Positions 1 through 53,356 of a stretch of DNA of 53,356 nucleotides are shown here, piece after piece (position 1 is the stretch's first letter; each line of letters opens with the position of its first letter). A program made the translations under genes and the position numbers. The notes below the pieces were generated by a model that worked only from the letters and a program-made list of their open reading frames with translations, was not told the origin of the DNA and searched no databases. This stretch comes from a virus (taxonomy: Duplodnaviria; Caudoviricetes). The stretch lies in the IMG/VR virus record IMGVR_UViG_3300044844_001309, positions 1-53,356 of that record; one strand, given 5' to 3'.

Positions 1-127
1 TCGGTGGTCATGGTCTCTCTCGTTTCTGCCGGGTGCGCTGTCACGCCCCGACGAGAGAGACTCTACGCGTTCTCTGGTTCGTGGTCTACCGTAATTCAAA
101 CAATCGTACAACCGTAGCAACGGCGGC
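1..127. repeat. Terminal direct repeat, left copy (circular assembly overlap)
   Basis: Identical to 53230-53356; 127 nt matches a common assembler k-mer length. Confidence 0.95.
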
Positions 128-3084: not shown

Positions 3085-3707
3085 AGCCGAACCTCCACGC
3101 TCGCGCTGGCGCGCGTCAGCGTCTCCGTCGTTTGCAGGGCGGCCCTGCCCAGCACCAGCCGCTCGCCGCCGCCTACGCTGACGAGCGCGGGTGTGGCCGT
3201 GGCCTCCGCCGGCAGGCCCACGGCCGAGCTGGCGCGCGCGGGTAGTTGCTCCGTCTCGCTCGCCAGCGTCAGGGTCGGGCTGCCTACCTCGGCGGCCTGG
3301 GTGGCCAGCGCGGTGAACTCGAGCACGTGCGCCTGCACCAGCGTCGCCGAGGCCAGCGCGGCCGCCGGAGCTGCGAGCGAGGACGCCGCCATGCCGATGT
3401 TCTGCGCCATCGTCGGCGACGACAGCGCGGCCGCGGGCGCCTCGAGCGCGGTCGCCGTGAGCGCGTGGACCTGCGACAGCGCCGCGGACCCGACGCTAGC
3501 CTGAGGCGCCGACAGCGACGCGGGCGCGAGGGCGTGCGCCTGCGTGAGCGCGGACGTGCCCAGCACCGCCTGAGGCGCCGACAGCGACGCGGGCGTGAGG
3601 GCGTGCGTCTGCGTGAGCGCGGACGTGCCCAGCACCGCCTGAGGTGCCGCCAGCGGCGACGCGGTCAGTGCGAGACTGGCCGCGCCTCTGAGCAGGAGCA
3701 GCAGCAC
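3081..3707 (-). CDS. Repetitive Ala/Ser/Thr-rich tail-associated protein
   Basis: 23-aa tandem repeats such as ALTPASLSAPQAVLGTSALTQAH. Confidence 0.55.
   Translation of the reverse strand: MLLLLLRGAASLALTASPLAAPQAVLGTSALTQTHALTPASLSAPQAVLGTSALTQAHALAPASLSAPQASVGSAALSQVHALTATALEAPAAALSSPTMAQNIGMAASSLAAPAAALASATLVQAHVLEFTALATQAAEVGSPTLTLASETEQLPARASSAVGLPAEATATPALVSVGGGERLVLGRAALQTTETLTRASASVEVRL
3500..3670. repeat. About 69-bp coding tandem repeats
   Basis: cctgaggcgccgacagcgacgcgggc and tgcgtgagcgcggacgtgcccagcaccgcctgagg recur at 69-nt spacing. Confidence 0.8.
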
Positions 3708-28634: not shown

Positions 28635-29109
28635 CCTCGTCCTCGTCGCGCGCCTGGCCCGTGAGGCGCCCGCGCAGGTCCGTGATCATCGCGTCCAGCG
28701 CCAGCAGGTTGTCGGTCTTCTGCGTCACGCTGAATGCCTCGGCCGCGTCCAGACCCATCAGCTTCGCGCGGCGCTGCTGCACGCGGATGATCGACAGCGT
28801 CGCCGCGGCCAGGCCCTCACCGTCGCCGGCGGCGTGCGCGGCCTCGGCCTGCGCGAGGCCCATGCGCTCGAGCTCGTCCAGGGTCGCGAGGTCGAGCTGG
28901 CGCAGCTCCTCCGCGCTCTCGGCCGTCGCCTCCCGGAGCGCCGTGAGCGCGCGCTCCACCGCCTTGCGCGCGCCGCTCTCCTCGGCGTACCCGCACTCCG
29001 CCGCGATCACGCGGTAGGGCAGCCGCTTCTTGCGCAGGTCCACCGCCTTGGCGACACGCTCGGCCTCGGTGAGCACGGCCGCGCCGGTCTTGCTTCTGCT
29101 ACGCGCCAT
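28615..29109 (-). CDS. terS: Terminase small subunit
   Basis: N-terminal HTH (LPYRVIAAECGY); RRAKLMGLDA; directly upstream of terL. Confidence 0.8.
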   Translation of the reverse strand: MARSRSKTGAAVLTEAERVAKAVDLRKKRLPYRVIAAECGYAEESGARKAVERALTALREATAESAEELRQLDLATLDELERMGLAQAEAAHAAGDGEGLAAATLSIIRVQQRRAKLMGLDAAEAFSVTQKTDNLLALDAMITDLRGRLTGQARDEDEGGAEPR

Positions 29110-29926
29110 CGGAACCCCTCAGGTCGGATTGTAGCACGGTCTCTCGTGGCGGCTCGACACGACCAACGCCCAGCCGCGTCCGCTCCGCTTCATCTCGGGC
29201 CCGGATGGCCCGTATCTCGTCGCGGTAGTAGGTCCACTCGTGCTCCACGCGGCCGCGCTCGGCGCCGCGCTCCTCGGCCAGCATGTCCACGCGCAGGTGC
29301 TCGCGGTCGAACAGCCCGCCCATGGTCATCGCGTAGATCGGGTGGACCGGCAGGTCGTGGGCTTCCAGGTAGGCAAACACGTCCTTCGTCGTCCACCAGC
29401 CGAGGGGCATCGAGCCACTGGCCGAGTTCTCGCCGAACTTGCACATGCTGATGCGGCGCACCCGGGACTCTTGCGCGCGCACGCCGGTGATGTGGCCCGG
29501 TCCGTGACGGCGCACCGCCTCGGCCAACCCGTGGCGGAAGTACAGCGACGACGCGGCGGTCAGCTCCCGCGTGTAGTCGTACTCCACCACGATCTCCTCG
29601 TAGCGGAGGCCGGGGTGCTGCTGGAGAAACGCGTCCCGCACGCGCTCGCAGTCGGGGTTGAACCACCACGAGCCCTTCACCCAGACGAGCGGGAGATCGA
29701 TCTCGTGGCGAAGCAGCCAGGCCAGGTGCGCGACCACGGTGGAGTCTTTGCCCCACGAGACGGAGACGTAGGCGCGCGTCGTCGCGACGAAGTCACGGAT
29801 GGCCTGAAGGGCACGCGCGGGCTTCTTCCCGCGCGCGAGCATGCGCCCCAGGATGGCGTCCGTCCGCGCGTGCGTCGCCCACACCTCCAGGTCACGCGCC
29901 GTGTGCCGGGGGCTGGCGATCAGCAT
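29099..29926 (-). CDS. cysH: CysH-like / PAPS-reductase-family protein associated with type IV-B Cas
   Basis: PP-loop VSVSWGKDSTVV; TGVRAQESRVR; PLGWWTTKDVFAYL. Confidence 0.85.
   Translation of the reverse strand: MLIASPRHTARDLEVWATHARTDAILGRMLARGKKPARALQAIRDFVATTRAYVSVSWGKDSTVVAHLAWLLRHEIDLPLVWVKGSWWFNPDCERVRDAFLQQHPGLRYEEIVVEYDYTRELTAASSLYFRHGLAEAVRRHGPGHITGVRAQESRVRRISMCKFGENSASGSMPLGWWTTKDVFAYLEAHDLPVHPIYAMTMGGLFDREHLRVDMLAEERGAERGRVEHEWTYYRDEIRAIRARDEAERTRLGVGRVEPPRETVLQSDLRGSDGA
29128..29136 (-). promoter_or_regulatory. Possible extended -10 promoter (TGcTACAAT) for the packaging operon
   Basis: TGCTACAAT about 18 nt upstream of the terS ATG. Confidence 0.35.
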
Positions 29927-30206
29927 GCCGCCCCCGCCGCTTCCACCCGTCGTGCTCGGGCAGCACCGTCACCAGGTCGGGGCGCTCGCCCGGCCCATGC
30001 GGCACCACAACAAATCGCAGCCGGTGCGGCCGGCCCGTGCGCCAGACCTCCCCGGTGCGCCCGTCCTCGAGCGTCTTGACCTTGGTCCGATGCGCCACCA
30101 GCGACAAGCGGATGAGTCGGCCCAAGGCCTGGCTCGGTGTGAGCTCGGGCGCGACCCGCTCCCGGTAGCGGTCGACGGCGTGGCTCGTGATGCGCCATGG
30201 TCCTAC
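29892..30206 (-). CDS. RelE/DUF4258-like (BECR fold) small protein; start codon unclear
   Basis: WRITSHAVDRYRERV...LRFVV...DLVTVL; no in-frame ATG/GTG near the expected start. Confidence 0.45.
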   Translation of the reverse strand, partial: VGPWRITSHAVDRYRERVAPELTPSQALGRLIRLSLVAHRTKVKTLEDGRTGEVWRTGRPHRLRFVVVPHGPGERPDLVTVLPEHDGWKRRGRHADRQPPAHGA

Positions 30207-30754
30207 GAGCCCCCGACCTTCGTGAGCCGCCAGTGCCCCCGGGATGGGCGCGTCACCACCCGCTCGCCCATCGCCACCAGCGTGTGCGTCACCGTCGACG
30301 TCGATTTGCCCACGTCGTCCGCCAGCTCGCGCGTCGTCGCCTCTCCACCACGCGCCTTCAGCGCCTGACGTAGCGTCTCCGCCGCCACACCCGACCCCGA
30401 GGCGTGCACCATCCGGCCCGGCGTCGGTGCTCGGGGCGCCAACACCGGCCGCGTAGGGCGCGGCCGCGCATCCACCGCAGGCAGCACGGTGCCCAGAGTC
30501 CGGACCTCGGCCGGCCGCAGGCGCGCGAGTACGATCTCCAGCGCCTGCCGCGCCTCGTCCTCCGGCACGCCCTCGATCGCCTCGCCCAGGCGCACGATGA
30601 GCGCGCCGAACTTCTGGACCTTGAGGGTGCGGCTCGTGAGCTCCACCGTCTTGGCCGGGGGCGCCGCCACCGCCAGGCCCTGCCCCGCCACGTAGCGCCG
30701 CCCGCGCGCAGTCTCCTCGCCGATCACGTCCTGGATGTCGCTGTCGGTCGTCAT
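30203..30754 (-). CDS. Protein with C-terminal winged HTH
   Basis: ATTRELADDVGKSTSTVTHTLVAM...RPSRGHWRL; AGGAG RBS. Confidence 0.7.
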   Translation of the reverse strand: MTTDSDIQDVIGEETARGRRYVAGQGLAVAAPPAKTVELTSRTLKVQKFGALIVRLGEAIEGVPEDEARQALEIVLARLRPAEVRTLGTVLPAVDARPRPTRPVLAPRAPTPGRMVHASGSGVAAETLRQALKARGGEATTRELADDVGKSTSTVTHTLVAMGERVVTRPSRGHWRLTKVGGS

Positions 30755-31494
30755 GCCGTCTTCTCCTGTGCCGCGTGTGCGGCGGTCTCATGCACCCGAA
30801 CCATGCCGAAGCCGAAGCCTCGGTGCCGGCCGATGCCGCGCAGCATGGCGGTCTGCCGCTGCTCGTAGGTCGACCACTGCGCGTAGCCGGTGACCTCGAC
30901 CGCCGTGGTACTCCACGACAGCGCCCGGCGTCCCCGCGCAGGGCCTCGCTGCGTCTGGCGCACCAGCGTCACGTCCCAGCTGCGGGCGTGGTCCACCAGC
31001 ACGAGCGGCGCGCCCGCGGACTCCAGGCGCTGCGTCACCCACGCTACCCGTGCGTCCAGCGCCTCGGCCGGGGTGAGCGTCCGCCCGTGCAACTGGGCCT
31101 GTGTCACCACGTCGACTTCGGCCCCCGCGGCGTAGCCCCCGAGCGGCTTCGACAGCCGCACGACGGGCAGCGCCACCACGGCGATCGGTGTCCGCAGATC
31201 GTGCACCAGCTCGCCGAGCCCGACGCACTCGATCTTGAGCGTCGACGTCGCGGCCCGCACCTCCGCTGAGGCGTGCAGGTTGCGCCAGCCGAGCCACTCC
31301 GCGGGCTGGTACATCTCGGCCTCGACCGTCGGGCCCACCCGCGTGAGGTGGAACGTCTGCGGCGGGACGTCGAACGCCTCCGCCAGCAGCACGTGCATCA
31401 GGTAGCCGATGTCCGAGAGCGGGTAGCCGCGCGCCCGAGCCAGCGTCTCCAGCCCACCGCGCGCGACCGACAGGCGGATGAGGTACAGGCTCAC
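30751..31494 (-). CDS. cas6: Cas6 endoribonuclease (Cas6e/CasE-like)
   Basis: N-terminal LYLIRL, DIGYLMH..LAEAF; C-terminal G-rich loop RGIGRHRGFGFGMV. Confidence 0.85.
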   Translation of the reverse strand: MSLYLIRLSVARGGLETLARARGYPLSDIGYLMHVLLAEAFDVPPQTFHLTRVGPTVEAEMYQPAEWLGWRNLHASAEVRAATSTLKIECVGLGELVHDLRTPIAVVALPVVRLSKPLGGYAAGAEVDVVTQAQLHGRTLTPAEALDARVAWVTQRLESAGAPLVLVDHARSWDVTLVRQTQRGPARGRRALSWSTTAVEVTGYAQWSTYEQRQTAMLRGIGRHRGFGFGMVRVHETAAHAAQEKTA

Positions 31495-32186
31495 GCGGCC
31501 TCCGGGATCACGCATACCTCCTCGGCGGCGCGATTCCAGTACGGGTAGCTCAGCACCGCGTAGGCACGCGTGGCCTCGGGCCGCACGTCGGGCCACCCAT
31601 CGGGCAGCGGGCGCATCGGCCAGCCGTCGCGCACAAGCGGGAACGTCTCACTCCACGGCGCGCACCCCTCGACCGTCCAGCGCAGCACCGCACCACGGCC
31701 CACCGCCCGGCGCTTGCCGAGGTAGCCCACGTACTGAAGCAGATCCGCTACAGCCGCGCCGTCGCCCACGGCCCACCACGTAAGCCGGTCGTCCTCCATG
31801 TGCCGTGTCTCCAGCGGCAGGCGGTAGGTTTTCTGGGCGCCGGCCGCGATGTTGATGCGCGTGAACTTCTCCACCGCCATCTCCTGCGCCTCGGCCAACG
31901 GGAAGCGGCGGTTGATCCACACGTGCTCTCGCTCGTCGACGTTGCCCACTGACGTCGTGCACAGGTGGAATCGTCCGCCCTCAGCGCGCGCAAGCGGGAT
32001 CTCGATCGGCCGCAGCTCGGACACGCGCAGCGCGGGCGGCAGGTCCTGGACCTGGGCGACCGCCCACGCGAGGAGACCGTCCAGGCGCACCTCGGCCGAG
32101 GCCAGGCCGGCCCGCAGGGTGGCCGTGATGCGGAGCGGCTGGCGCGCGTCGCCCGCGGCCAGCCCTGCCGTGACCACCTCGGTCAC
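31491..32186 (-). CDS. csf3: Type IV Cas5-family subunit Csf3
   Basis: PLRITATL, LDGLLAWA, GAQKTYRLPL, WWAVGD...LL, LGKRRAVGRGAV..W, RPLP, PYW. Confidence 0.85.
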   Translation of the reverse strand: MTEVVTAGLAAGDARQPLRITATLRAGLASAEVRLDGLLAWAVAQVQDLPPALRVSELRPIEIPLARAEGGRFHLCTTSVGNVDEREHVWINRRFPLAEAQEMAVEKFTRINIAAGAQKTYRLPLETRHMEDDRLTWWAVGDGAAVADLLQYVGYLGKRRAVGRGAVLRWTVEGCAPWSETFPLVRDGWPMRPLPDGWPDVRPEATRAYAVLSYPYWNRAAEEVCVIPEAA

Positions 32187-33208
32187 GCGTCCACCCCGCG
32201 CAGCAGCGCTACGATCGCCTCGCGCCGGTCGGCCACGTGCGCGCGGAAGATCTCACCGACCCCCACATCACCGAACGTCATCGCCGTGGCGCTCTCGGAC
32301 GGGCGCGCGATCGCGCACGACCAGCCCTGCACCGGCTTGATGTAGCCGTGGCCCGTGCCTGACTTCCCGCCGACGCGGGCGTGGGCGAGGAAGGCCGAGA
32401 GCATCAGGCGGAAGGTGTCGCGCTCGAGCTCCGAGTGAGTGCGCGCCTCGACACCCCAATAGAACAGCGACCCGGTGGCAATCGTCTCGAAGCTCCGGGG
32501 CATCATGGACGACTTGCTGTGCTCCTTGCCCACGGCGTCGTCCTCGGCGGACGCCGTCTCGCTGGCCAGGAGCCGCCCCTCGACCGCGGCGCGCGAGGCC
32601 GGCAACAGCAGCTCCCGCTTCTCGGGTACCAGGGTCGGGTCCATGCGGACGCGGACGACCTCGTCGATGTGGGCGCGGCAGGTGTCCTCGGGCCCGGCGT
32701 ACGTCTCGGCCCAGGCGCGCACGCGGTCGGGCACCACGCGGGCCGACTCGCGGCAGATGAGCACCGCGCGCTCGACAGCCATCTTGCCCGGGATGACGCG
32801 GTTCTCCGCGCACCCGCCCAGCAACTCCATGCTGGGGATGAGCTCGCAGAGGCGCCGGTAGTGGTCGAGCTTGACCACACTGCCGTCGCCGTTACCCGTG
32901 ACCATGCCGCCCGCAAACAGCAGCCGGAGGGCCGCCTCGGTGAGCCGGGACTCCAGCAGCCCCGCTGCGTCAAGAAACACGTAGCTGGCCGCCTCGCGCA
33001 GCTTGTGACGCATGGTGTCCCCGGTGATGATCGGCACGCGCGCAAAGCCGCCATCCACCTGGCGGACCTTCTCTGTCATCGCCAGCGCGGCGTTGCCGAT
33101 GGTCTCGCCATGGTGCGCGATCGGGCTGGCTGCCTCCAGCGCGACCTCGTAGCGGAGCACCTCGAAGCGGCGCGCGGGGGTGGGGTTCGTGGTTTCGGTG
33201 GTCTGCAT
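32183..33208 (-). CDS. csf2: Type IV Cas7-family backbone subunit Csf2
   Basis: LEAASPIAH, VPIITGDTMRHKLR, LLFAGG, PSMELLGG...IPGKMAV, C-terminal VGGKSGTGHG. Confidence 0.9.
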   Translation of the reverse strand: MQTTETTNPTPARRFEVLRYEVALEAASPIAHHGETIGNAALAMTEKVRQVDGGFARVPIITGDTMRHKLREAASYVFLDAAGLLESRLTEAALRLLFAGGMVTGNGDGSVVKLDHYRRLCELIPSMELLGGCAENRVIPGKMAVERAVLICRESARVVPDRVRAWAETYAGPEDTCRAHIDEVVRVRMDPTLVPEKRELLLPASRAAVEGRLLASETASAEDDAVGKEHSKSSMMPRSFETIATGSLFYWGVEARTHSELERDTFRLMLSAFLAHARVGGKSGTGHGYIKPVQGWSCAIARPSESATAMTFGDVGVGEIFRAHVADRREAIVALLRGVDA

Positions 33209-33218
33209 GGTGCTCTCC

Positions 33219-33707
33219 TCAGGCCTTCGGCAGGGTCATGGTGATGGACTCGAAGTGCTCGCGGTCGACGGCGTCACGCGCCTCCCGGCGCTTCTCGACG
33301 GCCTCCCGCGCGAGGGCCACGAGCAGTCCGCGCTCCGCCTCGATCAGGCCCAGGAACCGGTCCGGTGTCAGGACGCCCACGCTGCACAGCCCGTCGACGT
33401 GACGCACCAGCGCCAGCATGGCCGAAGAGGTCGCCTTGCTCGGCCCCGGCAGCCGGAGCCCCCGCGCCACCAGCGTCGGCCACTCCATCGGCCCGGACGA
33501 CCGCTTCGCCGCACTGACCATCCGCGTCTCGATCTGCTCCCACTGCTTCAGCGCGCTTCCGCCGCCCGCGAGAAACTGCTGGCGCCACGCCAGCATCAGG
33601 TCCACCACCAGCAGGCGCACCGTCTCCAGTTCCACCGCCGAGATCGTCGGGGGCCGCGCCTTGAACATGCCCGCCGGCGCGGGGCTTCCGTTGCTGCTTT
33701 CGCTCAC
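33219..33707 (-). CDS. cas11: Type IV-B small subunit (Cas11-like)
   Basis: All-helical, about 160 aa, between csf1 and csf2; GAGGAG RBS before the GTG. Confidence 0.7.
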   Translation of the reverse strand: MSESSNGSPAPAGMFKARPPTISAVELETVRLLVVDLMLAWRQQFLAGGGSALKQWEQIETRMVSAAKRSSGPMEWPTLVARGLRLPGPSKATSSAMLALVRHVDGLCSVGVLTPDRFLGLIEAERGLLVALAREAVEKRREARDAVDREHFESITMTLPKA

Positions 33708-34485
33708 GCTTCTGCTCCTCTTTCTTCGCCGCGGTCGCGGCCTTCTCGCGCGCCATGCGCGCCTGCACCTCGACTTCGTCACGCTGGGCCAGCCATAGCG
33801 CGAGCGCGAACCACGTCCCGCCCCGCAACGCCCGGCCGTATCGCGCCTCGAAGGCCTCGATGAGCGGCCGACACAGCCCGTACGCGCGCGCCGTGTACGT
33901 GCCCAAGCCGACCTCCTCCTTAGTCGCGCCCGACGTCAGCATCACCACGAGGTCGTCGATGATCGCCCAGCCCTCGGGCCCCGGGAGCACCACCTCGGTC
34001 TCCTCGAACAGCACGCGGCCGCGCGTCGTGCCCGGCAGGTTCAGCGGGGTCCATTGCAGGACGTGCTTCTGGCCGCTGTCGGCGATGGCCGCGAACCACG
34101 CCCCGCGCTTCGGCCGCCGGAGGAACGCGAGGATCGCAGGCTTCTCGCCCTTGCTCGCGTTGATGTACCGCGGCTCGGCGCCACCGTCGTAAAGGTGTGA
34201 GTAGTTGCGGTACGACCCGCCAAAGATCTTGCCCTCTTTCGGGGGCCGGCCCGGCACTGGGACCGTGCGCTGGGCGAAGTAGACGCAGCTCTCGCACACG
34301 TGCGTCCCGTCGACGTAGCGGACGCGGTTCTGGCCAACAAAGCCCGAGCCCATCCAGTCCTCGCGCACCATGCCGCGGGTGAGCGGCCCGGCGCACACCC
34401 AACACAGCCCCGCAACCGGCGCGCAGTCAGCCACCGCTGGAGAGCCGAGTTCGGCGTGGAGCACCTGCGCCGCTGTGAGAGCCAC
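33274..34485 (-). CDS. csf1: Type IV large subunit Csf1 (Cas8-like); conserved part ends near 33710
   Basis: Zn finger CWVC...VCESC, RNYSHLY, WFAAIADSGQKHVL..TPLN. Confidence 0.85.
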   Translation of the reverse strand: MALTAAQVLHAELGSPAVADCAPVAGLCWVCAGPLTRGMVREDWMGSGFVGQNRVRYVDGTHVCESCVYFAQRTVPVPGRPPKEGKIFGGSYRNYSHLYDGGAEPRYINASKGEKPAILAFLRRPKRGAWFAAIADSGQKHVLQWTPLNLPGTTRGRVLFEETEVVLPGPEGWAIIDDLVVMLTSGATKEEVGLGTYTARAYGLCRPLIEAFEARYGRALRGGTWFALALWLAQRDEVEVQARMAREKAATAAKKEEQKRERKQQRKPRAGGHVQGAAPDDLGGGTGDGAPAGGGPDAGVAPAVSRGRRKRAEAVGADRDADGQCGEAVVRADGVADAGGAGAPAAGAEQGDLFGHAGAGASRRRAVQRGRPDTGPVPGPDRGGARTARGPRAGGRREAPGGA

Positions 34486-34491
34486 GAGTGC

Positions 34492-34520
34492 AGCGCCTCA
34501 CCCGGATGACGCGCGGTCAA
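34492..34520 (-). promoter_or_regulatory. Possible leaderless promoter of the cas operon
   Basis: TTGACC begins 35 nt upstream of the csf1 GTG; weak -10; no RBS. Confidence 0.35.
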
Positions 34521-34708
34521 GAGGCCTGTGGGTCTGAGGCCTCGACGCGTCGCGCTCGCCACGCCGCGAGGTCGACGACCTCCGCCACCTGCGGCCGCGC
34601 ACGGCGCTCGGGCTGGAGGCGCTCCAGCAGCGCGCGCCAGAGCTCGGGCGGGACGTCGGCCAGGTGGCGCACGGGGCGCCGGCGCGGGAACGGCAGCACG
34701 CGGCCCAT
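34517..34708 (-). CDS. Hypothetical protein
   Basis: MGRVLPFPRR...AEVVDLAAWRARR. Confidence 0.5.
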   Translation of the reverse strand: MGRVLPFPRRRPVRHLADVPPELWRALLERLQPERRARPQVAEVVDLAAWRARRVEASDPQAS

Positions 34709-35178
34709 CACCCTGCCCTCCGCGCAGCTCGAGCCTCGGCCCGGAACGCGTCGATCTCGCCCTCGCTCACCTTGTGCCCCGCCGCGATGCGCGACAGGAG
34801 CCACCGCGTCGTGACGTGGTTGACCTCGACCTCCAGCGGGGAGAGCGAGGCGCACGCGGCGAGCTGGCGGTCCTGCTCGCGCTGGGCCTGCGCCCGCCGG
34901 CGCTCGGCGCGGACCTCGTCCATCGCCTCGACCAGGTCCCCGAGCGTGACCCAGCGGTCTGTCAGTCGCTCCGCGACCCGGCCGACGCCCTCTTGCGCTG
35001 TGGCCACGTCCCACGGCCCGGCCATGAGGCGCCGAAGCCAGAGCTTCGACGCGCTCGACGGGCCGGCCTTTGTGCCCGCGGCCTTGTCGCCCTCGATCAC
35101 CAGCAGCGCCCGAGCCCCCGGGACCGCGGCACCGATCAGCAGCGAGAGCACGCCTCGCGCTTCCGCTTCGGACATCAT
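34708..35178 (-). CDS. Replication accessory protein (possible helicase loader)
   Basis: Directly downstream of the initiator; helical. Confidence 0.4.
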   Translation of the reverse strand: MMSEAEARGVLSLLIGAAVPGARALLVIEGDKAAGTKAGPSSASKLWLRRLMAGPWDVATAQEGVGRVAERLTDRWVTLGDLVEAMDEVRAERRRAQAQREQDRQLAACASLSPLEVEVNHVTTRWLLSRIAAGHKVSEGEIDAFRAEARAARRAG

Positions 35179-36362
35179 CGCGACACCTCCGTCGGGTCCA
35201 GCGGGGCCAGCGTCTCGCTCGGCCGCATGGACCACTCGCCTTCGAGAAACATCTCCACCGAGTCACCCGGCGTAGGTACCGCACGGGCGTAGCCGGCCGA
35301 CGTCGGGCGGAGCACGAGCGCGCCCTGCGGCGGCGGGTCCGGGTCGTCCGGCATCGGCGGCACCGGCCGGGCCTCGAGCGTCCACGCGACCATGGCCTCC
35401 ACGGCGTCCTGCTGGGCGTTGCGGCGGGGGGCCGCCGTCGCCGTGCGGGCGGGGGCGCGCATCGCCTCCTTGTCCTGCTCACGCGTCAGCCAGCGCACGG
35501 CGAAGCGGTGGCCGTTGGAGCGCGGCCGCTCGGCGGGGTTGGCTTTGAGCCACGCGACCATCCGCGCGAGCTGGGCCCGCACGTCGACGGCCGGGTAGGC
35601 CTCGGACCACTCGCCCACGTCCGCCTCGGTCACCGTCTCGGTCCGCGTGCCGATGAGCGGAAGGACCACGACCACGGGCGAGGTCGTTCCCCGAACGGCG
35701 GGCGGCGTGCCCGCCGCTTCGGCGGGTCGCGCCGCGTCCTGCGCCGGCACCTCTGCTTGAGAAAGAACTACTGTTCCTCTCTGCTCCTCTCCTCTCCTCT
35801 CCTCTCTAGAGCACGGTGGGGCCACGGTGGCCCCACCGTGGTCCACGCGTGCGCCACCGTGGTCCACGCGTGCGCCACGCACCGGCACGCGTGCGCCACC
35901 GTGGTCCACGCGTGCGCCACCGTGGTCCACGCGTGCCGCACTCTGGCTCACGCGTGACGCACGCGGCTCTGTTTTGGCGGCTTTCTCGTCTTCCACGGAA
36001 GCCACCCGCGTGGCCTTTGCCGCGGCGCGTCGTTCGCGCTCCGAGGCGGCTCGTCGGTAGGAAGCAGCTCGCTCGCTCCACCCGTGGACCTCCAACGACC
36101 CGTCATCGGTGGTGCGGTCAAGCCAGCGGGAGGTCACGAGGGCGGCCACGAGCCGGCCGTCCTCGCCGGTCCACTCGAGCACGGCCTCGAGTTCCGCGTC
36201 GGAGATGCCGTCGAGCATGCCGCTGGGGCGTGTCTGGAGGACCCACGCCCAGAGGTCGGAGATCACGCCGATCGCCTCGCGTCGCGAGACCCCGAGCTCG
36301 CGGGCGAGCCGAAGCGTTTTGTGGTGTCGGGGGAGGCTGGCCTCCCACTGTAGGTAGCTCAT
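35175..36362 (-). CDS. Phage replication initiator / replisome organiser
   Basis: HHKTLRLARELG...LWAW...LEVHGW N-terminus; REERRGEE linker; YPAVDV...AWL..NP...RF..RWL C-domain; internal iterons. Confidence 0.8.
   Translation of the reverse strand: MSYLQWEASLPRHHKTLRLARELGVSRREAIGVISDLWAWVLQTRPSGMLDGISDAELEAVLEWTGEDGRLVAALVTSRWLDRTTDDGSLEVHGWSERAASYRRAASERERRAAAKATRVASVEDEKAAKTEPRASRVSQSAARVDHGGARVDHGGARVPVRGARVDHGGARVDHGGATVAPPCSREERRGEEQRGTVVLSQAEVPAQDAARPAEAAGTPPAVRGTTSPVVVVLPLIGTRTETVTEADVGEWSEAYPAVDVRAQLARMVAWLKANPAERPRSNGHRFAVRWLTREQDKEAMRAPARTATAAPRRNAQQDAVEAMVAWTLEARPVPPMPDDPDPPPQGALVLRPTSAGYARAVPTPGDSVEMFLEGEWSMRPSETLAPLDPTEVSR
35833..35936. repeat. Five tandem 21-bp iterons (one variant); likely replication origin
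   Basis: ccaccgtggtccacgcgtgcg at 35833, 35854, 35896, 35917 plus a variant at 35875; next to a pyrimidine tract. Confidence 0.8.
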
Positions 36363-36472
36363 CGCCACGTCCCCCAGCGCCGCAGCGCCCACGCGAGCAC
36401 GGCCACCAGCTGGCCAGCGAACAGCAGCAAGGCCCCGAGGACCATGAAAAGCAGAGCTTCCAGCGGGGTCAC
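36359..36472 (-). CDS. Small membrane peptide
   Basis: 37 aa, hydrophobic; coupled on both sides. Confidence 0.45.
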   Translation of the reverse strand: MTPLEALLFMVLGALLLFAGQLVAVLAWALRRWGTWR

Positions 36473-36744
36473 GCCATCCTCCGTCTCTTGCCGCTCTTGG
36501 TCGGGAACCACAGCACGGACCGCTCGCCCGGGACCTTCGCCGCCTTCCGCGCGTCGACTCGCGTGGGGACGGGCGGCAGGGGCTGCTCCATCGTGCGGGC
36601 GATCTTCCGCGCCCCGCTCAGCGTGAGGTTGAAGCGGGCCTTGAAGTCGGGCCCCGACACGCCGTCGAGGATCGCGTCCGCCCAGCGGCGCACGTCCTCC
36701 GGGGTGTGCACCCGGCGTCGGCCGGGCATGGTGGTGCGGCTCAT
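36469..36744 (-). CDS. Small HTH-like protein
   Basis: HTPEDVRRWADAILDGVSGPDFKARFNL; resembles 38339-38581. Confidence 0.45.
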   Translation of the reverse strand: MSRTTMPGRRRVHTPEDVRRWADAILDGVSGPDFKARFNLTLSGARKIARTMEQPLPPVPTRVDARKAAKVPGERSVLWFPTKSGKRRRMA

Positions 36745-38796: not shown

Positions 38797-40307
38797 CCGA
38801 CCCTCAGGGTGAGTTGCTTGGTGGCGCGCACCGTGCGCGCGAAGTTGGCCTTGACCAGCGCCTCCGCCATCACCGGCGACACGCTGTTGCCGACCATGCG
38901 GACCTGCTCCGTCTTGGTCAGCGGCGCGCCGTCCGCGCCCTCGTCGATCACGTAGCTGTCCGGGAAGCCTTGGCAGCGGAAGAGCTCGCGGGGGCTCAGC
39001 ATCCGCATGCCGATGTCGACCACCACGTAGGTCTCACCGTCGATCGTCACCGTCGCCAGCTCGGCCGCGGCGTCGTAGCCCTCGAACCGCTGGAGGAGCG
39101 AGTACACCGCCGCGATATGCGTCCCGCCCGCGGTGATCGTCGGCGCGGGCGCCTCGACCGACCGGCCGCCACGGTCCGAGCCGCGGAGGTGCACCAGGTG
39201 GGCCGCCACGAGCGCGTGGTGGTCGACGGTGGTGATGGTGCCCGCGGGCTTGTCGAGCGGGACACCGGCGACCTTGTCGTTGCGCTTGCCGCCGTAGTGC
39301 TTCGCGAGGAACGCGACCGAGAGCGCGTGCTTCACGCCCTCGGCCATCACCGTGCCGAGGGGCTGCTGGATGTCGTAGACGCGCGGCGCCTGGCCCGGCC
39401 GCTCCCCGTTGCCCGAGTGGTAGAGCACCGGGGCCACGAGGGCGAAGCGGTCGCGCGTGACGATGGTGTCGAGCGGTGCGTCCAGGTCACGCGGGCCGCC
39501 CGTGCCGTAGTACTTCACGATGAACGGCCGCGCCGACTTGAGTACGAAGCGCCGGACACCTCGGGCGATGCGGGCCAGCGTCTTGTCCGCCAGCGGGCGC
39601 GGGCGCTCGAAGATCGACGGACACGGGATGCTCCAGTCGATGCACTCGGCCGCGGTGCGGTACGGGTGCGCGCGGCCAGGTCCGTGCGTCGGCTCGGGCC
39701 AGACGATCGGCTGGCCCGTGGACGTGGCGATGATGAACAGCCGCCGGCGCGTGGTCGGCGCGCCGTAGTCGCACGCGCGGAGCTGGCGCCACTCGACGGT
39801 GTACCCGAGCGCACGGAGCTTCCCGACCCACACGCGGAACGACCGGCCCGCCTTCGCAGGGTCGGGCTTGCCGTCGTGGCCCAGCGGCCCCCAGGCCTGG
39901 AACTCCTCGACGTTCTCGACGAACAGCCAGTCCGGCCGCGCCGTCTTCGCCCAGCGCAGCAGCACGCCGGCCAGCGCCCGGCGCTTGTTCGCGCCGCGCG
40001 GGTCGCGGAACGGCGCCGAGCCTCGAGCCTTGCTATGGAAGGTGCAGTCCGGCGAGCCCCACAGCAGCGTGAGCGGGCGGCCGCGGACCACGTCCTCGGG
40101 GCGCGTGTGCCAGATGTCGCCCACCCGGTGCTCGGTCAGGGGGTGGTTGCGGGCGTGCATCGCCAGCGCCTGGCGGTCGTGGTTGATCGCGACGTCGGGC
40201 CCGCGACCCAAGGCCCACTCGATCCCCAGGCTCGCCCCGCCGCCGCCGGCGAAGGCGTCGACGATGAGCCCGTCCGGGTGGATGCGCAGAAGCTTCACCG
40301 CCTTCAC
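38793..40307 (-). CDS. DNA cytosine-C5 methyltransferase
   Basis: DAFAGGGG (I), SPDC (IV), ENV (VI), TRRRLFIIA (VIII), RELFRCQGF (IX), VGNSV (X). Confidence 0.92.
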   Translation of the reverse strand: MKAVKLLRIHPDGLIVDAFAGGGGASLGIEWALGRGPDVAINHDRQALAMHARNHPLTEHRVGDIWHTRPEDVVRGRPLTLLWGSPDCTFHSKARGSAPFRDPRGANKRRALAGVLLRWAKTARPDWLFVENVEEFQAWGPLGHDGKPDPAKAGRSFRVWVGKLRALGYTVEWRQLRACDYGAPTTRRRLFIIATSTGQPIVWPEPTHGPGRAHPYRTAAECIDWSIPCPSIFERPRPLADKTLARIARGVRRFVLKSARPFIVKYYGTGGPRDLDAPLDTIVTRDRFALVAPVLYHSGNGERPGQAPRVYDIQQPLGTVMAEGVKHALSVAFLAKHYGGKRNDKVAGVPLDKPAGTITTVDHHALVAAHLVHLRGSDRGGRSVEAPAPTITAGGTHIAAVYSLLQRFEGYDAAAELATVTIDGETYVVVDIGMRMLSPRELFRCQGFPDSYVIDEGADGAPLTKTEQVRMVGNSVSPVMAEALVKANFARTVRATKQLTLRVG

Positions 40308-42355
40308 GCCGCCACCTCCTGCGCACGCGCGGCCAAGCGCACCACGTGGACGCCTTCGACCTCGGGTACCGTGTCCGGGCATCCTGCCACCAGCACCTGG
40401 TCCACACGCCCCGCGCGGTACGCCGCCACCAGCGCGGCCAGCAGCGCCTCGCGGTACTCGAGCGAGACGGTCTCGATGCCGTCCAGCAGCACCACCCGCC
40501 ACCCGGGCGTATGCTCCGCCAGCAGCACCAGCAGCGCGCCGAGGAAGCGGGTCCGCTCTCCCGTCGACAGCCCGGCCACGTCGACCCCGCCGACGGTCAG
40601 CCGGCAGGCCTCCCCGCCGCGGGCGTCGACCAGCTCGATCGCGACGGGCGCGCCCATCGACGCCGAGAGCGGCGCCTCCAGCTGCGCGCGGGTCGCCGTC
40701 AGGGCCTCGACCTCCCACGTGCGGACCGCGGCGAGCGCATCCACCCAGCCCTCCACGTCGTGGGCCGCGTCGGCCGCCTCGCCCTCGGTGGAGATGGCGC
40801 GGGCCTTCAGCTCGGCGACGGCGCCGGCCGTGGCCAAGAGCTGCTCCACGGTGCGGATCTCGGTCTCGATCGCGTCGGGGTCCCGAGCCGGCGGCATCGC
40901 GTCGATGCGAGAGCGCAGGTCCACGGCCAGGGCCGCCTCGCGCATCGTGCGGAGGGCGTCGGTGAGCGCGTCCACCGCGGCCTGGTGGGTGGCCTGTGCC
41001 GCGCGGCGCGCGCGCGCCAGCGTCCGGCCACGCTCCACCCGCTCGACCACGGGCCACACCTCGGCCAGCAGCATCCGAGCGGCGTTGCCCCACTCGGCGC
41101 GCCGCAGGGCCTCGCGGGCCGTGCGCAGGCGGACGCCGGTGGCGGCGGCCTGCGCCTCCGCCTCAGCGGCCATGAGCTCCAGGTCCGCCACCGCGCCCTC
41201 GGCCGCTTCGGCCAGGCCGGCGAACGCCGCCGCCAGGTCGCAGTCGCAGTCGGGGCAGTGGGAGATCGCCGAGTCGAATGGCTGGCGCAGCATCGTCGCT
41301 CGAGCCCGGCCCTCGGCCAGCGCGGCGTGGATGTTCTGGACCGGGGCGCGGGCGCCCTCGTCGGCGCTCCGCGCCAGCGCCACGTCCGCCTCGGCCAGGT
41401 CCACGTCCGCCTCGTCGGCGGTGCCGTCGGTGTCCCGTCGGGCGTCGGCCAGCGTCCGGGCCGCCGCGTCGAGCCGGGTCCAGTCCTCGTCCGTGGAGGG
41501 GTCCTCGGCCTCGGCATCTTCGGCCGCGGTGAGCGCCGTCGCCGCCTGGTCCACCGCCGCGCGCAGGGCCTCGACGTCGACGTTCGGCCCCTCGGCCGGG
41601 AGCGAGGCCAGCTGGCGCCGCAGGTCGGCCAGGGCCTGAGCGTCGGCCAGCTCGGCGCGGAGGGTCGCGAGGCTCTGCTGCAGCGAGGCGATCGACGCCA
41701 TGGCCGGGGTGTCGTCGGCCGCCTCGACCGCCGCCACGTGGGCGGCGTGGGCCTGCCTCGCCGCGGCGCGGGCCTTCGCCAGCCGGTCGGCCAGGTAGGC
41801 CAGCGCCCGGCCGCGCCAGGCGTCGGGCGTCTCGCCGGCCTCGCCCGCGGGCACCAGCCCCCGGAGCTCGGCGCCGGGCTCGGGCAGCCCGCCGACCAGC
41901 GCCAGCAGCCGCGCCCGAAGGCGGGCCTCGGGCATCGTCAGCAGCGCGTCGGGCGTCCACACGTCGCTCGAGCCGCCGAGCGCCAGCCCGATCGCCCCGA
42001 GGGCCTGGGCGAGCGACGCCCCCGACGGGAGCGCCGAGCGGCCGTCGGGCCCGCACAGCGTCCCGGAGCGGCGGATCGAGCCCCTGTCGTCGCGGGCCCA
42101 GCCGCGCGACATCACCGTGCCGTCGTCGAACGTGCCGCGCACCAGCACGGCGTCCCCCGAGGCCAGGCGCATCACGCCGTCATCGGTGGCCTCGACGCCC
42201 GGGGCGCGCCCGCGGGCCAGCAGGTGGAGGCTGATCAGGGCCTCGCTCTTGCCGGCCCCGTTGGCGCCCACCAGCAGCGTCACCGGGGCCAGCGTCAGCA
42301 CGCGGTCGTGCGCCTTGAGTCCGTCCGTGTACAGGGAGGTGAGGCGGCGGGTCAT
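40304..42355 (-). CDS. Rad50/SbcC/SMC-like ABC ATPase
   Basis: Walker A GANGAGKS, long coiled coil with CPDC zinc hook, signature LSTGE, Walker B VLLDGIE. Confidence 0.85.
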   Translation of the reverse strand: MTRRLTSLYTDGLKAHDRVLTLAPVTLLVGANGAGKSEALISLHLLARGRAPGVEATDDGVMRLASGDAVLVRGTFDDGTVMSRGWARDDRGSIRRSGTLCGPDGRSALPSGASLAQALGAIGLALGGSSDVWTPDALLTMPEARLRARLLALVGGLPEPGAELRGLVPAGEAGETPDAWRGRALAYLADRLAKARAAARQAHAAHVAAVEAADDTPAMASIASLQQSLATLRAELADAQALADLRRQLASLPAEGPNVDVEALRAAVDQAATALTAAEDAEAEDPSTDEDWTRLDAAARTLADARRDTDGTADEADVDLAEADVALARSADEGARAPVQNIHAALAEGRARATMLRQPFDSAISHCPDCDCDLAAAFAGLAEAAEGAVADLELMAAEAEAQAAATGVRLRTAREALRRAEWGNAARMLLAEVWPVVERVERGRTLARARRAAQATHQAAVDALTDALRTMREAALAVDLRSRIDAMPPARDPDAIETEIRTVEQLLATAGAVAELKARAISTEGEAADAAHDVEGWVDALAAVRTWEVEALTATRAQLEAPLSASMGAPVAIELVDARGGEACRLTVGGVDVAGLSTGERTRFLGALLVLLAEHTPGWRVVLLDGIETVSLEYREALLAALVAAYRAGRVDQVLVAGCPDTVPEVEGVHVVRLAARAQEVAA

Positions 42356-51143: not shown

Positions 51144-51539
51144 TCAGGCGGCTTTCGCCGAGGGATTCTGATCGTGGCGAGCGCGCGGTTTCGTAAACCG
51201 CAGGTCACCGGTTCGATCCCGGTCGTTGGCTTCCCCACCCACGCGCCGCTTCCCCTTCCCGCCCCCACCCGGGGACGGTGCCGGCCCGCCGCTCAGCGCG
51301 ACCGCCATTGCCCGCGTCGACTCCAGCCGCTCCCGCGCCCGATCGAGGTCCGACGCAAAGCGCCAGACCACCGCGACCGACACACCATACTGCTCGGCCA
51401 GGGCCTGCGCCTCGGCGGCACGGTCGGCCTGCTCGGTGTGGGGGACATTGCGGTACAGGAGGCCCGAGTCCTTGGGACGCGGGCCGCGCTTCTTCGGCGA
51501 AGTTTTCGGGTCGGGGGCCGGCGGGATCTTCTTGCTCAT
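51144..51539 (-). CDS. Ribbon-helix-helix-like regulator whose 3' end spans attP
   Basis: Basic N-terminus; RNVPH...AQALAEQYGVSVAVVWRFA; open frame through attP ending SAKAA. Confidence 0.6.
   Translation of the reverse strand: MSKKIPPAPDPKTSPKKRGPRPKDSGLLYRNVPHTEQADRAAEAQALAEQYGVSVAVVWRFASDLDRARERLESTRAMAVALSGGPAPSPGGGGKGKRRVGGEANDRDRTGDLRFTKPRARHDQNPSAKAA
51185..51231 (+). other. attP core: 3' part of tRNA-Thr(CGT)
   Basis: gcggt-TTCGTAA-accgc anticodon arm, accgg-TTCGATC-ccggt T arm, cgttggc acceptor 3' strand; 5' acceptor strand and D arm absent. Confidence 0.85.
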
Positions 51540-52663: not shown

Positions 52664-52731
52664 GGTCTCTCCTGTGGCGCGGGTTGTCCGCGCCGTGCAT
52701 GCTGGGCGCCCGCACACCGCTGTCACGGTGC

Positions 52732-52769: not shown

Positions 52770-53240
52770 CTAGGCGTTGGCCATCGCCCGAGTCCGCGTC
52801 TCGATGATCATTGCCTCGGCCTGGCTCCGGGCCACCGAGTCACGGGCGAGGGCCCGCCGCGCGAGCTGCGCGGTCGCGTCGTCGCCCGCCGCCTCCGCCT
52901 CGGCGCCGAGGGCGCGCACGTCGTCGTCGGTCGCGCTGATCTGGCACGCGGCGACCCAGGCGCGGCCGAGCAGGTCGGTGAGCTGCGCCTCGGTCACACG
53001 GCCGTCCGAGGCGTCTTCGATGTACGAGCCGCGGCGGACGTCGGGGCCCTCGCCCCGGATGCGGCACCCCTCGACCTCGCCCTGCCGAGTCGGCCGAACG
53101 GTGATCGACAGGTCGTCGCCCTCGTGAGCCGAGAGCCACTCGGTCATGTACGCGCAGCGTGCGGCGTGCTCCTCGGTGGTGACGGGGGCGCCCCAGGCAT
53201 CGGCGCTCAGTACGTGGGTCAGGCGGATCTCGGTGGTCAT
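52770..53240 (-). CDS. Hypothetical early protein
   Basis: GAGAGAGACC before the ATG; normal composition. Confidence 0.6.
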   Translation of the reverse strand: MTTEIRLTHVLSADAWGAPVTTEEHAARCAYMTEWLSAHEGDDLSITVRPTRQGEVEGCRIRGEGPDVRRGSYIEDASDGRVTEAQLTDLLGRAWVAACQISATDDDVRALGAEAEAAGDDATAQLARRALARDSVARSQAEAMIIETRTRAMANA

Positions 53241-53356
53241 GGTCTCTCTCGTTTCTGCCGGGTGCGCTGTCACGCCCCGACGAGAGAGACTCTACGCGTT
53301 CTCTGGTTCGTGGTCTACCGTAATTCAAACAATCGTACAACCGTAGCAACGGCGGC
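53230..53356. repeat. Terminal direct repeat, right copy
   Basis: Identical to 1-127. Confidence 0.95.

Follow-up and report, generated by a model that had tools for sequence, protein, structure and literature searches.

The cas6e-like gene of a temperate phage was found to encode an intact, divergent protein of the Cas6e family, translationally coupled inside a type IV-B csf operon, and the phage encodes no repeat that its Cas6e could cut. The reading given most weight, with a probability of about 40%, is that a working Cas6e-family endoribonuclease would be the RNA-selecting subunit of an array-less phage IV-B module and would take its substrate in trans, likeliest as type I-E repeat RNA. 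In the clade of phage loci to which the operon belongs, most IV-B loci carry a Cas6 enzyme, more than one Cas6 family is used, and an array is almost never present.

To our knowledge, type IV-B is the one CRISPR-Cas subtype known neither by its RNA partner nor by its function. A IV-B module with a sequence-specific hairpin RNase of its own would offer a practical way in, the RNA bound by Cas6 being the RNA on which the complex is built, and the value of the finding lies in this concrete experimental route to the IV-B RNA. In the open-access literature, no paper was found which gives IV-B a function or an RNA, or which describes a Cas6e in IV-B beyond a remark on 12 instances. According to that remark, Cas6 occurs in IV-B as "rare exceptions", with only 12 instances (PMC7038947), and the lack of an array is described as the norm, or the defining state, of the subtype (PMC7038947, PMC8175902, PMC12669027). 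The 2025 classification still counts IV-B as array-less, lists no effector nuclease for it and reports no experimental result on it (PMC12669027).

Phage genome and its occurrence in metagenomes

The window, that is, the whole stretch of DNA analysed (53,356 nucleotides), is the entire virus record, with direct terminal repeats and an estimated completeness of 100%. Its first 127 bases are the same as its last 127, so that the genome closes into a circle with a true length of 53,229 bp; the original prediction had described it as apparently complete, and the terminal repeats, the estimated completeness and the closure through the 127-bp overlap all agree with it. The G+C content is about 72%, and the minus strand carries almost all of the genes. 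A tyrosine integrase is encoded beside a tRNA-Thr(CGU)-like attP core, and the other phage genes include a T4-type large terminase and C5 and Dam-like methylases. The tRNA-like core had no full-length match in five genomes, nor in 301 sampled genomes of one class, and relatives of the large terminase are scattered across many host phyla.

Near-identical DNA was found in lake-water and freshwater metagenome runs of several studies; the stretch occurs in 22 sequencing runs, none of which is recorded as RNA. Positions 31228-35862 were identical in the contigs of other runs from lakes and fresh water, where cas6e carried one SNP, and the contigs of four other runs over 29000-36500 showed no joints and no insertions. 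The operon is stable in the population.

Repeated elements of other kinds were also seen in the window. Iterons of 21 bp, with an origin-like look, lie at 35822-35970 inside the ORF 35175-36392, and a coding tandem repeat of 69 bp lies at 3332-3655. Hairpins that share an apex stand in the leaders of early genes at 52718-52727 and 53265-53274 (36-45 being the terminal duplicate) and fold well; they were considered as a Cas6 substrate and set aside, being not I-E-like, and no link to Cas6 was drawn.

The cas6e-like gene encodes an intact Cas6e-family protein

The enclosing ORF spans 30751..31596 on the minus strand, within which the GC3 signal stays in frame from about 30751-30780 to about 31500 and then passes over to the frame of csf3. 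A GTG start at 31494 shares bases with the csf3 stop and has a GGAGG 5-6 nt ahead of it; an ATG at 31515, seven codons upstream, is also possible since the database copy of the protein (P0002) has the 254 aa that this start would give.

The product matched PF08798 at 33.9 bits (cut-off 25, E 4.9e-8), a threshold also passed in a separate genome search, and the PADLOC Cas6/Cas6e models at 5.2e-9 and 1.7e-8, and its score with the Cas6e equivalog model TIGR01907 was 17.4 bits, below the cut-off of 45.2. By these profiles, the protein is a divergent member of the Cas6e family and not an equivalog as defined by TIGR01907. A HMMER search over 1.84 billion representatives returned 113 matches at E<=1e-3, 7 at <=1e-10 and only its own cluster at <=1e-30. 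In an alignment of 59 of these 113 matches with the query (60 sequences), ten columns are invariant and all are kept in the phage protein, namely Y31, H34, E126, D128, W152, R179, G220, G222, G228 and G230.

The AlphaFold2 (AF2) model built on this family alignment reached a pLDDT of 91.6 and a pTM of 0.87. The best PDB folds were Cse3/Cas6e, 2y8w and 3qrp (T. thermophilus Cse3; E ~1e-10, probability 1.00), and the top 17 Foldseek matches listed were all Cse3/CasE chains (probability 1.00, target-normalised TM 0.48-0.67), so that the model has the two-lobed RRM/ferredoxin-like fold of Cse3/CasE. Y31 and H34 lie in the first long helix, and the four invariant glycines lie in the C-terminal Gly-rich loop. 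The Cse3 chain 1wj9 has Y23-x-x-H26 in the matching N-terminal stretch, a correspondence by motif and position and not by superposition. The Tyr and His of the first long helix (Y31/H34, Y23/H26 in Cse3) and the Gly-rich loop are what we take to be the catalytic features of Cas6e.

The gene product is an intact Cas6e-family protein and, judging from its conserved residues and predicted fold, is probably active. The label "Cas6e-like" of the original prediction was therefore well chosen, with PF08798 above its cut-off, the Cse3 fold matched and Y31, H34 and the glycines invariant. A complex prediction of Csf2 with Cas6e scored 0.00 against a mark of 0.32 and gives no answer, neither for nor against binding.

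The gene lies inside a type IV-B operon

The genes listed in Table 1 follow each other in the order csf1-cas11-csf2-csf3-cas6e-wHTH-small ORF-cysH, tightly packed and partly overlapping, and the terminase genes come next. Overlaps of 4 nt join csf2 to csf3, csf3 to cas6e and cas6e to the wHTH gene, the start of which overlaps the cas6e stop. Thus, cas6e is translationally coupled inside the csf operon.

Table 1. Genes of the phage csf operon, with positions in the window and the evidence for each assignment
Gene	Position	Strand	Evidence
csf1 (type IV Cas8-like)	33274..34485	-	PADLOC Csf1_0_IV 1.3e-15; TIGR03114 1.4e-5
cas11-like small subunit	33219..33671	-	position; similarity to the gene that relatives have between csf1 and csf2; GC3 frame switch
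csf2 (type IV Cas7)	32183..33208	-	PADLOC Csf2_0_IV 2.1e-49
csf3 (type IV Cas5)	31491..32186	-	TIGR03116 9.1e-14, below curated cut-off; PADLOC Csf3_0_IV 9.8e-33
cas6e-like gene	30751..31494	-	247 aa from GTG 31494; PF08798, PADLOC Cas6e models, AF2/Foldseek Cse3
wHTH-like gene	30203..30754	-	GC3 frame; weak HVO_A0261_N match, E 0.01
small ORF, no obvious start codon	29892..30200	-	just upstream of cysH; GC3 frame
cysH-like gene, PAPS-reductase family, IV-B accessory gene	29099..29926	-	PF01507 3.3e-12

The NCBIfam type IV equivalogs match the csf genes below their cut-offs. The homology of csf1 ends near 33790, the frame staying free of stops until 33274 and running over cas11, and the csf1 sequence is identical in the contigs of three other runs. 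The cas11-like gene, a frame of 150 aa with coding GC3, had no Pfam or PADLOC profile match; of the 27 related viral loci, 25 gave a tblastn match in the syntenic position. For the wHTH gene, no homologue was found in any related locus examined, and together with cas6e it makes up an insert specific to this lineage, placed between csf3 and the pair made of the small ORF and cysH. The small ORF is 40% identical over 87 aa to L083 9163-9405, which directly precedes the cysH of that locus, and is matched in L186, L187, L188, L195 and L200 as well; in the relatives it travels with cysH. The cysH-like product is 32% identical to Orf44 of the Skermania phage SPI1 and 40% to the L083 CysH, and has a PP-loop-like SWGKDS motif, with its cysteines all away from the C-terminus.

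A Pfam scan of 30 window ORFs found no helicase family, and with it no DinG or RecD; the 683-aa ORF 40304-42355 had no Pfam match. Beside cas6e, the neighbours are csf1, cas11, csf2, csf3 and cysH, with neither I-E Cascade genes nor cas1, cas2 or cas3. The presence of cysH and of the cas11-like gene, together with the lack of a helicase and of an array, assigns the operon to subtype IV-B. The subtype is usually described as having no Cas6, a trait from which this operon departs by its cas6e-like gene.

Search for arrays, mini-arrays and solitary repeats

No repeat-spacer array was found in the whole genome with a repeat finder, TRF, Rfam and a k-mer detector for at least three copies, the last of which was validated by recovering the arrays of 48 of 80 cellular control loci in the same run. 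A two-copy scan, from 20 nt with 2 mismatches to 28 nt with 6 mismatches at spacings of 40-120, returned only the iterons and the tandem repeat mentioned above. A position weight matrix (PWM) made from 40 I-E repeats from relatives of the phage Cas6e family peaked at 7.5 bits in the window, as against at least 30 bits for true repeats and a mean maximum of 6.0 over 200 shuffles. The I-E repeat core was found 33 times with up to 3 mismatches, against 36 expected.

The original prediction had seen no array by eye, and the array detectors and the two-copy scan bear this out; the check it had proposed, carried out with I-E repeats allowing mismatches and with mini-array detection, found neither an I-E repeat nor a mini-array. 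It had also regarded the lack of an array as peculiar to this one genome, a view that does not hold, since array-less is the defining state of IV-B and 28 of the 29 loci of the clade described below have none. As one of two possible guide sources, it had further proposed a single cryptic hairpin in the phage. The only core match with one mismatch (about 0.3 expected, by estimate) lies at 33667-33684 on the minus strand, which is the sense strand of the operon, at the cas11 start codon. Its folding is no more stable than that of its shuffles (z 0.36), it is not conserved at that place in L083 or L023 and, with the core count at chance, this proposal was left without support.

Relatives of the phage Cas6e

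The phage Cas6e had no match among 50,697 phage records and among 72,556 plasmids, and a single-protein scan of viral contigs brought up none either. A word-index search with 4402 candidates gave two proteins, itself and one at 32% identity, and a scan of metagenomes with the phage Cas6e gave 80 loci, none above ~31% identity over full length. The closest other proteins are 32-37% identical, and nothing lies between ~37% and 100%. In the Cas6e tree, the phage branch has a length of 2.92 against a median of 0.41. This very long branch and the low identity suggest that the hairpin specificity may have drifted from I-E repeats. The window and L083 proteins are adjacent in the tree with an SH-aLRT of 56 and are both long-branched, which does not allow a common origin to be concluded, and the L023 Cas6e is placed elsewhere.

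Among cellular relatives of the Cas6e subfamily, arrays lie 1.3-3 kb away in 48 of 80 genome loci. The 47 repeat consensuses taken from arrays beside such relatives are nearly all of the classic 28-29-nt I-E type with a CCCCGC/GCGGGG stem, and it is this association that makes I-E-type repeat RNA, supplied in trans, the likeliest substrate of the phage enzyme. The metagenome-assembled genome behind L023 (G310; ~3 Mb, incomplete) has one Cas6e and seven scattered matches to the repeat core, with no array.

Cas6 genes in related phage IV-B loci

For the phage Csf2, 650 homologues were found at E<=1e-5; the best of those listed, itself left out, are 52-74% identical to it. An alignment of 42 Csf2 sequences led to 27 viral loci which, with the window and G001/L083, make a clade of 29. 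All 27 hold csf1, csf2 and csf3, and 25 of them have a match to cas11 and 25 a match to cysH. A Cas6-family gene is present in 20 of the 29 loci, 17 times as a canonical Cas6 and three times as a Cas6e type (the window, G001/L083 and L200), L200 being the only one of the 27 retrieved loci matched by the Cas6e profile. The remaining nine loci show no Cas6 with either the canonical Cas6 or the Cas6e profile in the flanks examined. Cas6 is therefore common in this phage clade, unlike the "rare exception" found in print.

The canonical Cas6 was first met in L193, as an insert between csf3 and cysH with PF10040 over its cut-off; 5 of 14 members match PF10040 and two match Cas_Cas6_C, and the structures that best match an AF2 model are those of canonical Cas6, one from type IV-A among them. 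Its position varies, being upstream of csf1, between csf3 and cysH, or after cysH. G001/L083, a second complete phage, has a Cas6e-type gene of reduced length between csf2 and csf3, and the same place is taken by the Cas6e-type gene of L200; neither has the wHTH gene. Across the clade, Cas6 genes occupy at least four different operon positions, and three lineages can be told apart, namely canonical Cas6, a 'GRHR-loop' Cas6e and the classic Cas6e of L200. In the window, the usual Cas6 of the clade seems to have been replaced by a non-orthologous Cas6e, inserted together with the wHTH gene.

An array was found in one of the 29 loci (L187) and in none of the other 28 in the sequence examined. It consists of six ~37-nt repeats at the very end of the contig, L187 having neither type of Cas6, and its five full spacers had no full-length match in any sequence searched. 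The five Cas6-bearing records that were scanned whole, namely the window, G001, G307, G308 (50% complete) and G309 (89% complete), are all without an array. Accessory genes are exchanged in some relatives, L182 having a PTPase-like gene and L186 a methylase and a radical SAM gene. Between the window and G001, no shared nucleotide motif above chance was found.

Such recurrence suggests that Cas6 is probably functional in the clade. The retention of several Cas6 lineages at shifting positions, in operons whose effector almost never comes with an array, argues that recognition of a hairpin RNA matters and that this RNA is made elsewhere.

Possible sources of the RNA

The repeats found beside its cellular relatives are the only clue to the RNA of the phage Cas6e, and transcripts of an I-E system in the host or in a co-resident element were for this reason ranked first as its source, with a non-CRISPR hairpin second. 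In the mechanism proposed, the enzyme would recognize I-E-style repeat hairpins with the CCCCGC/GCGGGG stem in the CRISPR transcripts of the host or co-resident element. On the model of Cas6e in Cascade and of Cas6/Csf5 in type IV-A, it would cleave the RNA at the hairpin base and remain bound to the hairpin. A Csf2 filament could then start from the bound Cas6e along the neighbouring spacer, with the CysH-like enzyme acting downstream, and the outcome would be either the sequestration of host guides, as an anti-CRISPR, or the reuse of host spacers against competing elements. The original prediction had named theft or sponging of host I-E crRNA as its other option, which is plausible as the leading reading; crRNA scavenging and a crRNA sponge are already published as hypotheses for IV-B (PMC8175902, PMC7038947), and the present finding bears on both. 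Counted against it are the long branch of the Cas6e, its TIGR01907 score below the cut-off and the absence of a full match to the attP core among the genomes sampled, as well as the negative correlation reported between IV-B and I-E and other CRISPR systems (PMC7038947) and the solved IV-B complex of Mycobacterium sp. JS623, described as not loading co-expressed I-E crRNAs (PMC8175902), in a system which, however, lacks Cas6. Since most members of the clade use another Cas6 family, the link to I-E cannot be general.

The second reading, tentative and on balance somewhat unlikely, is that the Cas6e-like subunit binds a hairpin RNA outside CRISPR, such as a host or phage transcript with a non-I-E stem, and loads it into the Csf complex, the module then working on a fixed RNA and not on guides. 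The JS623 complex was assembled on heterogeneous non-CRISPR RNA (PMC7937560, PMC8175902), and the long branch of the phage Cas6e fits a changed specificity. The clade has 28 of 29 loci without an array although 20 of the 29 hold a Cas6, and the exchanges of accessory enzymes in L182 and L186 point to RNA or DNA chemistry over guide-directed interference. However, no candidate stands out in the window, where repeat cores occur as often as by chance, no motif is shared with G001, and the hairpin at the cas11 start is neither conserved nor unusually stable.

A wider form of the preferred reading, in which the I-E link is one case among several, is more doubtful still. Array-less phage IV-B modules would here be built for loading by Cas6 with the repeat RNA of others, the Cas6 being matched to the CRISPR type of the host in order to pirate or neutralise its guides, and the window Cas6e would mark a switch to an I-E host. 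The three Cas6 lineages in at least four positions suggest that each phage keeps a Cas6 matched to its host.

It is improbable that the protein acts outside the Csf complex, as a regulator or processor of the mRNAs of its own operon or of other phage mRNAs, perhaps with the wHTH protein. The joint insertion of cas6e and wHTH between csf3 and the small-ORF/cysH pair would suit such a role, as would the near-match to the I-E core on the operon sense strand at the cas11 start codon, but this match is within chance and unconserved, and in G001 and L200 the Cas6e-type gene sits between csf2 and csf3 without a wHTH gene, which is the position of a complex subunit.

No better a prospect is that an I-E fragment was once captured and that the gene is what is left of it, decaying or catalytically idle and with no present role. 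A very long branch without close relatives and a failure to reach the TIGR01907 cut-off would be expected of such a remnant. A remnant is at odds with the open frame and its strong GC3 signal, the ten invariant columns kept among 60 aligned sequences, the confident AF2 model, the translational coupling to the neighbours and the single SNP across the contigs of other runs. Least probable is an array that exists and was missed, either collapsed or lost in assembly or lying beside the integration site in the host: the L187 array at a contig end indicates that arrays are possible in the clade and tend to break assemblies, but the record closes on itself through its 127-bp terminal overlap, the contigs of four other runs pass over 29000-36500 without joints or insertions, and three further phage records with a Cas6, complete or nearly so, are array-less too.

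Comparison with known systems

The phage locus resembles the JS623 IV-B system (PMC7937560, PMC8175902) in having csf1, a cas11-like gene, csf2, csf3 and a cysH-like gene on a mobile element, and in lacking an array, a helicase and a nuclease, as that system is described in these sources. It differs by the Cas6e-family gene, the wHTH gene and the small ORF added between csf3 and cysH, and by its carrier, a temperate phage and not a plasmid; the classical IV-B forms are found on plasmids of Rhodococcus, Gordonia and Mycobacterium, and the phage Csf2 is ~26-29% identical to plasmid forms.

A phage-borne csf1-cas11-csf2-csf3-cysH cassette is also present in Skermania phage SPI1 (KR011061), where Orf40-44 are annotated as hypothetical. 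Its Orf42 was the only Csf2 match among 50,697 GenBank phage records, at 28.7% identity to the phage Csf2. Unlike the locus of the window, the SPI1 cassette has no Cas6 gene and its cysH-like Orf44 comes directly after csf3. Fuxivirus, a virus of Bathyarchaeia, likewise encodes a IV-B module with cysH (PMC10541130). It has a two-repeat mini-array, and its main text makes no mention of Cas6, whereas the phage has a Cas6 and no array.

With the Cas6e of type I-E (T. thermophilus Cse3, 2y8w and 3qrp; E. coli CasE in Cascade, 4u7u and 4tvx), the phage protein shares the fold, the Y-x-x-H motif and the Gly-rich loop. It is set apart by an identity of 13-19% in the structural alignments listed and by a locus without Cascade partners, cas1, cas2, cas3 or an array. 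Type IV-A3, in which Cas6 was recruited from I-E (PMC7038947), is described there with DinG and an I-E-like array of its own and no cysH, the phage locus being the reverse on each of these points; the two are alike in joining a type IV effector to a Cas6e-type enzyme, and the phage protein matches the PADLOC model Cas6_0_IVA3 at 3.3e-6.

Canonical Cas6 proteins and a CRISPR-like array in related type IV-B loci

A canonical Cas6-family gene was found in 17 of the 27 related viral type IV-B loci (L181-L185, L189-L194, L196-L199, L201 and L202), where it occupies three different operon positions. The encoded proteins, some of which carry an N-terminal Cys-rich extension, gave weak to moderate matches to PF10040, and the best Foldseek matches were the Cas6 of T. 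thermophilus and a type IV-A Cas6.

The sole CRISPR-like array found in the IV-B clade lies at a contig end, in locus L187, and no Cas6 was detectable at that locus. It comprises six repeats, each about 37 nt long and with a GTGATC/GATCAC stem, separated by spacers of 28-38 nt, and lies 11 nt past an ORF of 665 aa that has no Pfam match. Spacer 5 of this array resembles one syntenic site of eight type I-E loci (L025, L005, L123, L088, L159, L158, L095 and L015) over a core of 15-18 nt, with 18-23 of 35 positions shared. The site is located about 700 nt upstream of cas6e, within the gene preceding it, and the frame read there resembles a Cas5 N-terminal motif. This similarity is borderline and could have arisen by chance in GC-rich DNA; should it be real, the phage IV-B array would target cas genes of the host I-E system.

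Organization and variation of the csf module

The csf1 frame of the window shows no stop where its homologous part ends and extends about 170 codons further, over cas11, whose reading frame differs. L083, the IV-B locus of the second complete phage (G001), and L200 show this overlap too, while csf1 and cas11 are separate genes in the related Cas6e locus L023 and in the Skermania phage SPI1. Since the window stretch is identical in contigs from three other runs, the overlap is not an assembly error. Possible explanations are a tolerated tail, fusion by a frameshift or internal initiation of cas11.

The small ORF preceding cysH, which has no evident start codon in the window, is conserved with 32-50% identity in L083, L186, L187, L188, L195 and L200. 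Its conservation and its usual place beside cysH in relatives suggest that it is another accessory gene of the IV-B module. Accessory genes are swapped in relatives: in L182, a tyrosine/dual-specificity phosphatase-like gene separates csf3 from cysH, and in L186 a DNA methylase-like gene and a radical SAM enzyme are found at the usual place of cysH.

Of the 13 single-base differences seen among lake populations, 12 map to cysH, to the small ORF or to the terminase small-subunit-like gene, in the last case at its 3' end; none was observed at 31228-35862.

Termini, attachment site and repeats

The record has a terminal repeat of 127 bp; its first copy thus duplicates features of the 3' end, the hairpin apex at 36-45 being one example. 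The integrase is adjoined by a tRNA-Thr(CGU)-like sequence, the likely attP core, with a well-preserved 3' half and a degenerate 5' half; it scored 26.6 bits with Rfam, under the gathering score of 29.

Coding tandem repeats of 69 bp are present in the structural-gene region of both the window and G001, which hints at a common repeat-bearing tail or fibre protein; nucleotide similarity between the two phages was nothing above chance.

Table. Coordinates of the features described
Feature	Sequence	Positions	Strand
Terminal repeat	window	1-127; 53230-53356	
69-bp coding repeats	window	3320-3655	
69-bp coding repeats	G001	1496-1662	
12 single-base differences	window	29041-30107	
Small ORF	window	29892-30200	-
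Small ORF	L083	9163-9405	
cas11	window	33219-33671	-
csf1 frame	window	33274-34485	-
csf1/cas11 overlap	L083	5773-6841	
csf1/cas11 overlap	L200	6868-8023	
405-aa ORF	window	35175-36392	-
21-bp iterons	window	35802-35969	
tRNA-Thr(CGU)-like	window	51157-51231	+
Phosphatase-like gene	L182	9610-10077	
Methylase-like gene, radical SAM enzyme	L186	9631-11717	
CRISPR-like array	L187	12570-13000	
Spacer 5-like site	L025	811-845	

Immediately upstream of the csf operon, five to seven copies of a 21-bp tandem iteron, containing the palindromes CACGCGTG and CCACGGTGG, sit in the middle of an ORF of 405 aa. This arrangement is reminiscent of the origin that lambda carries inside its initiator gene O.
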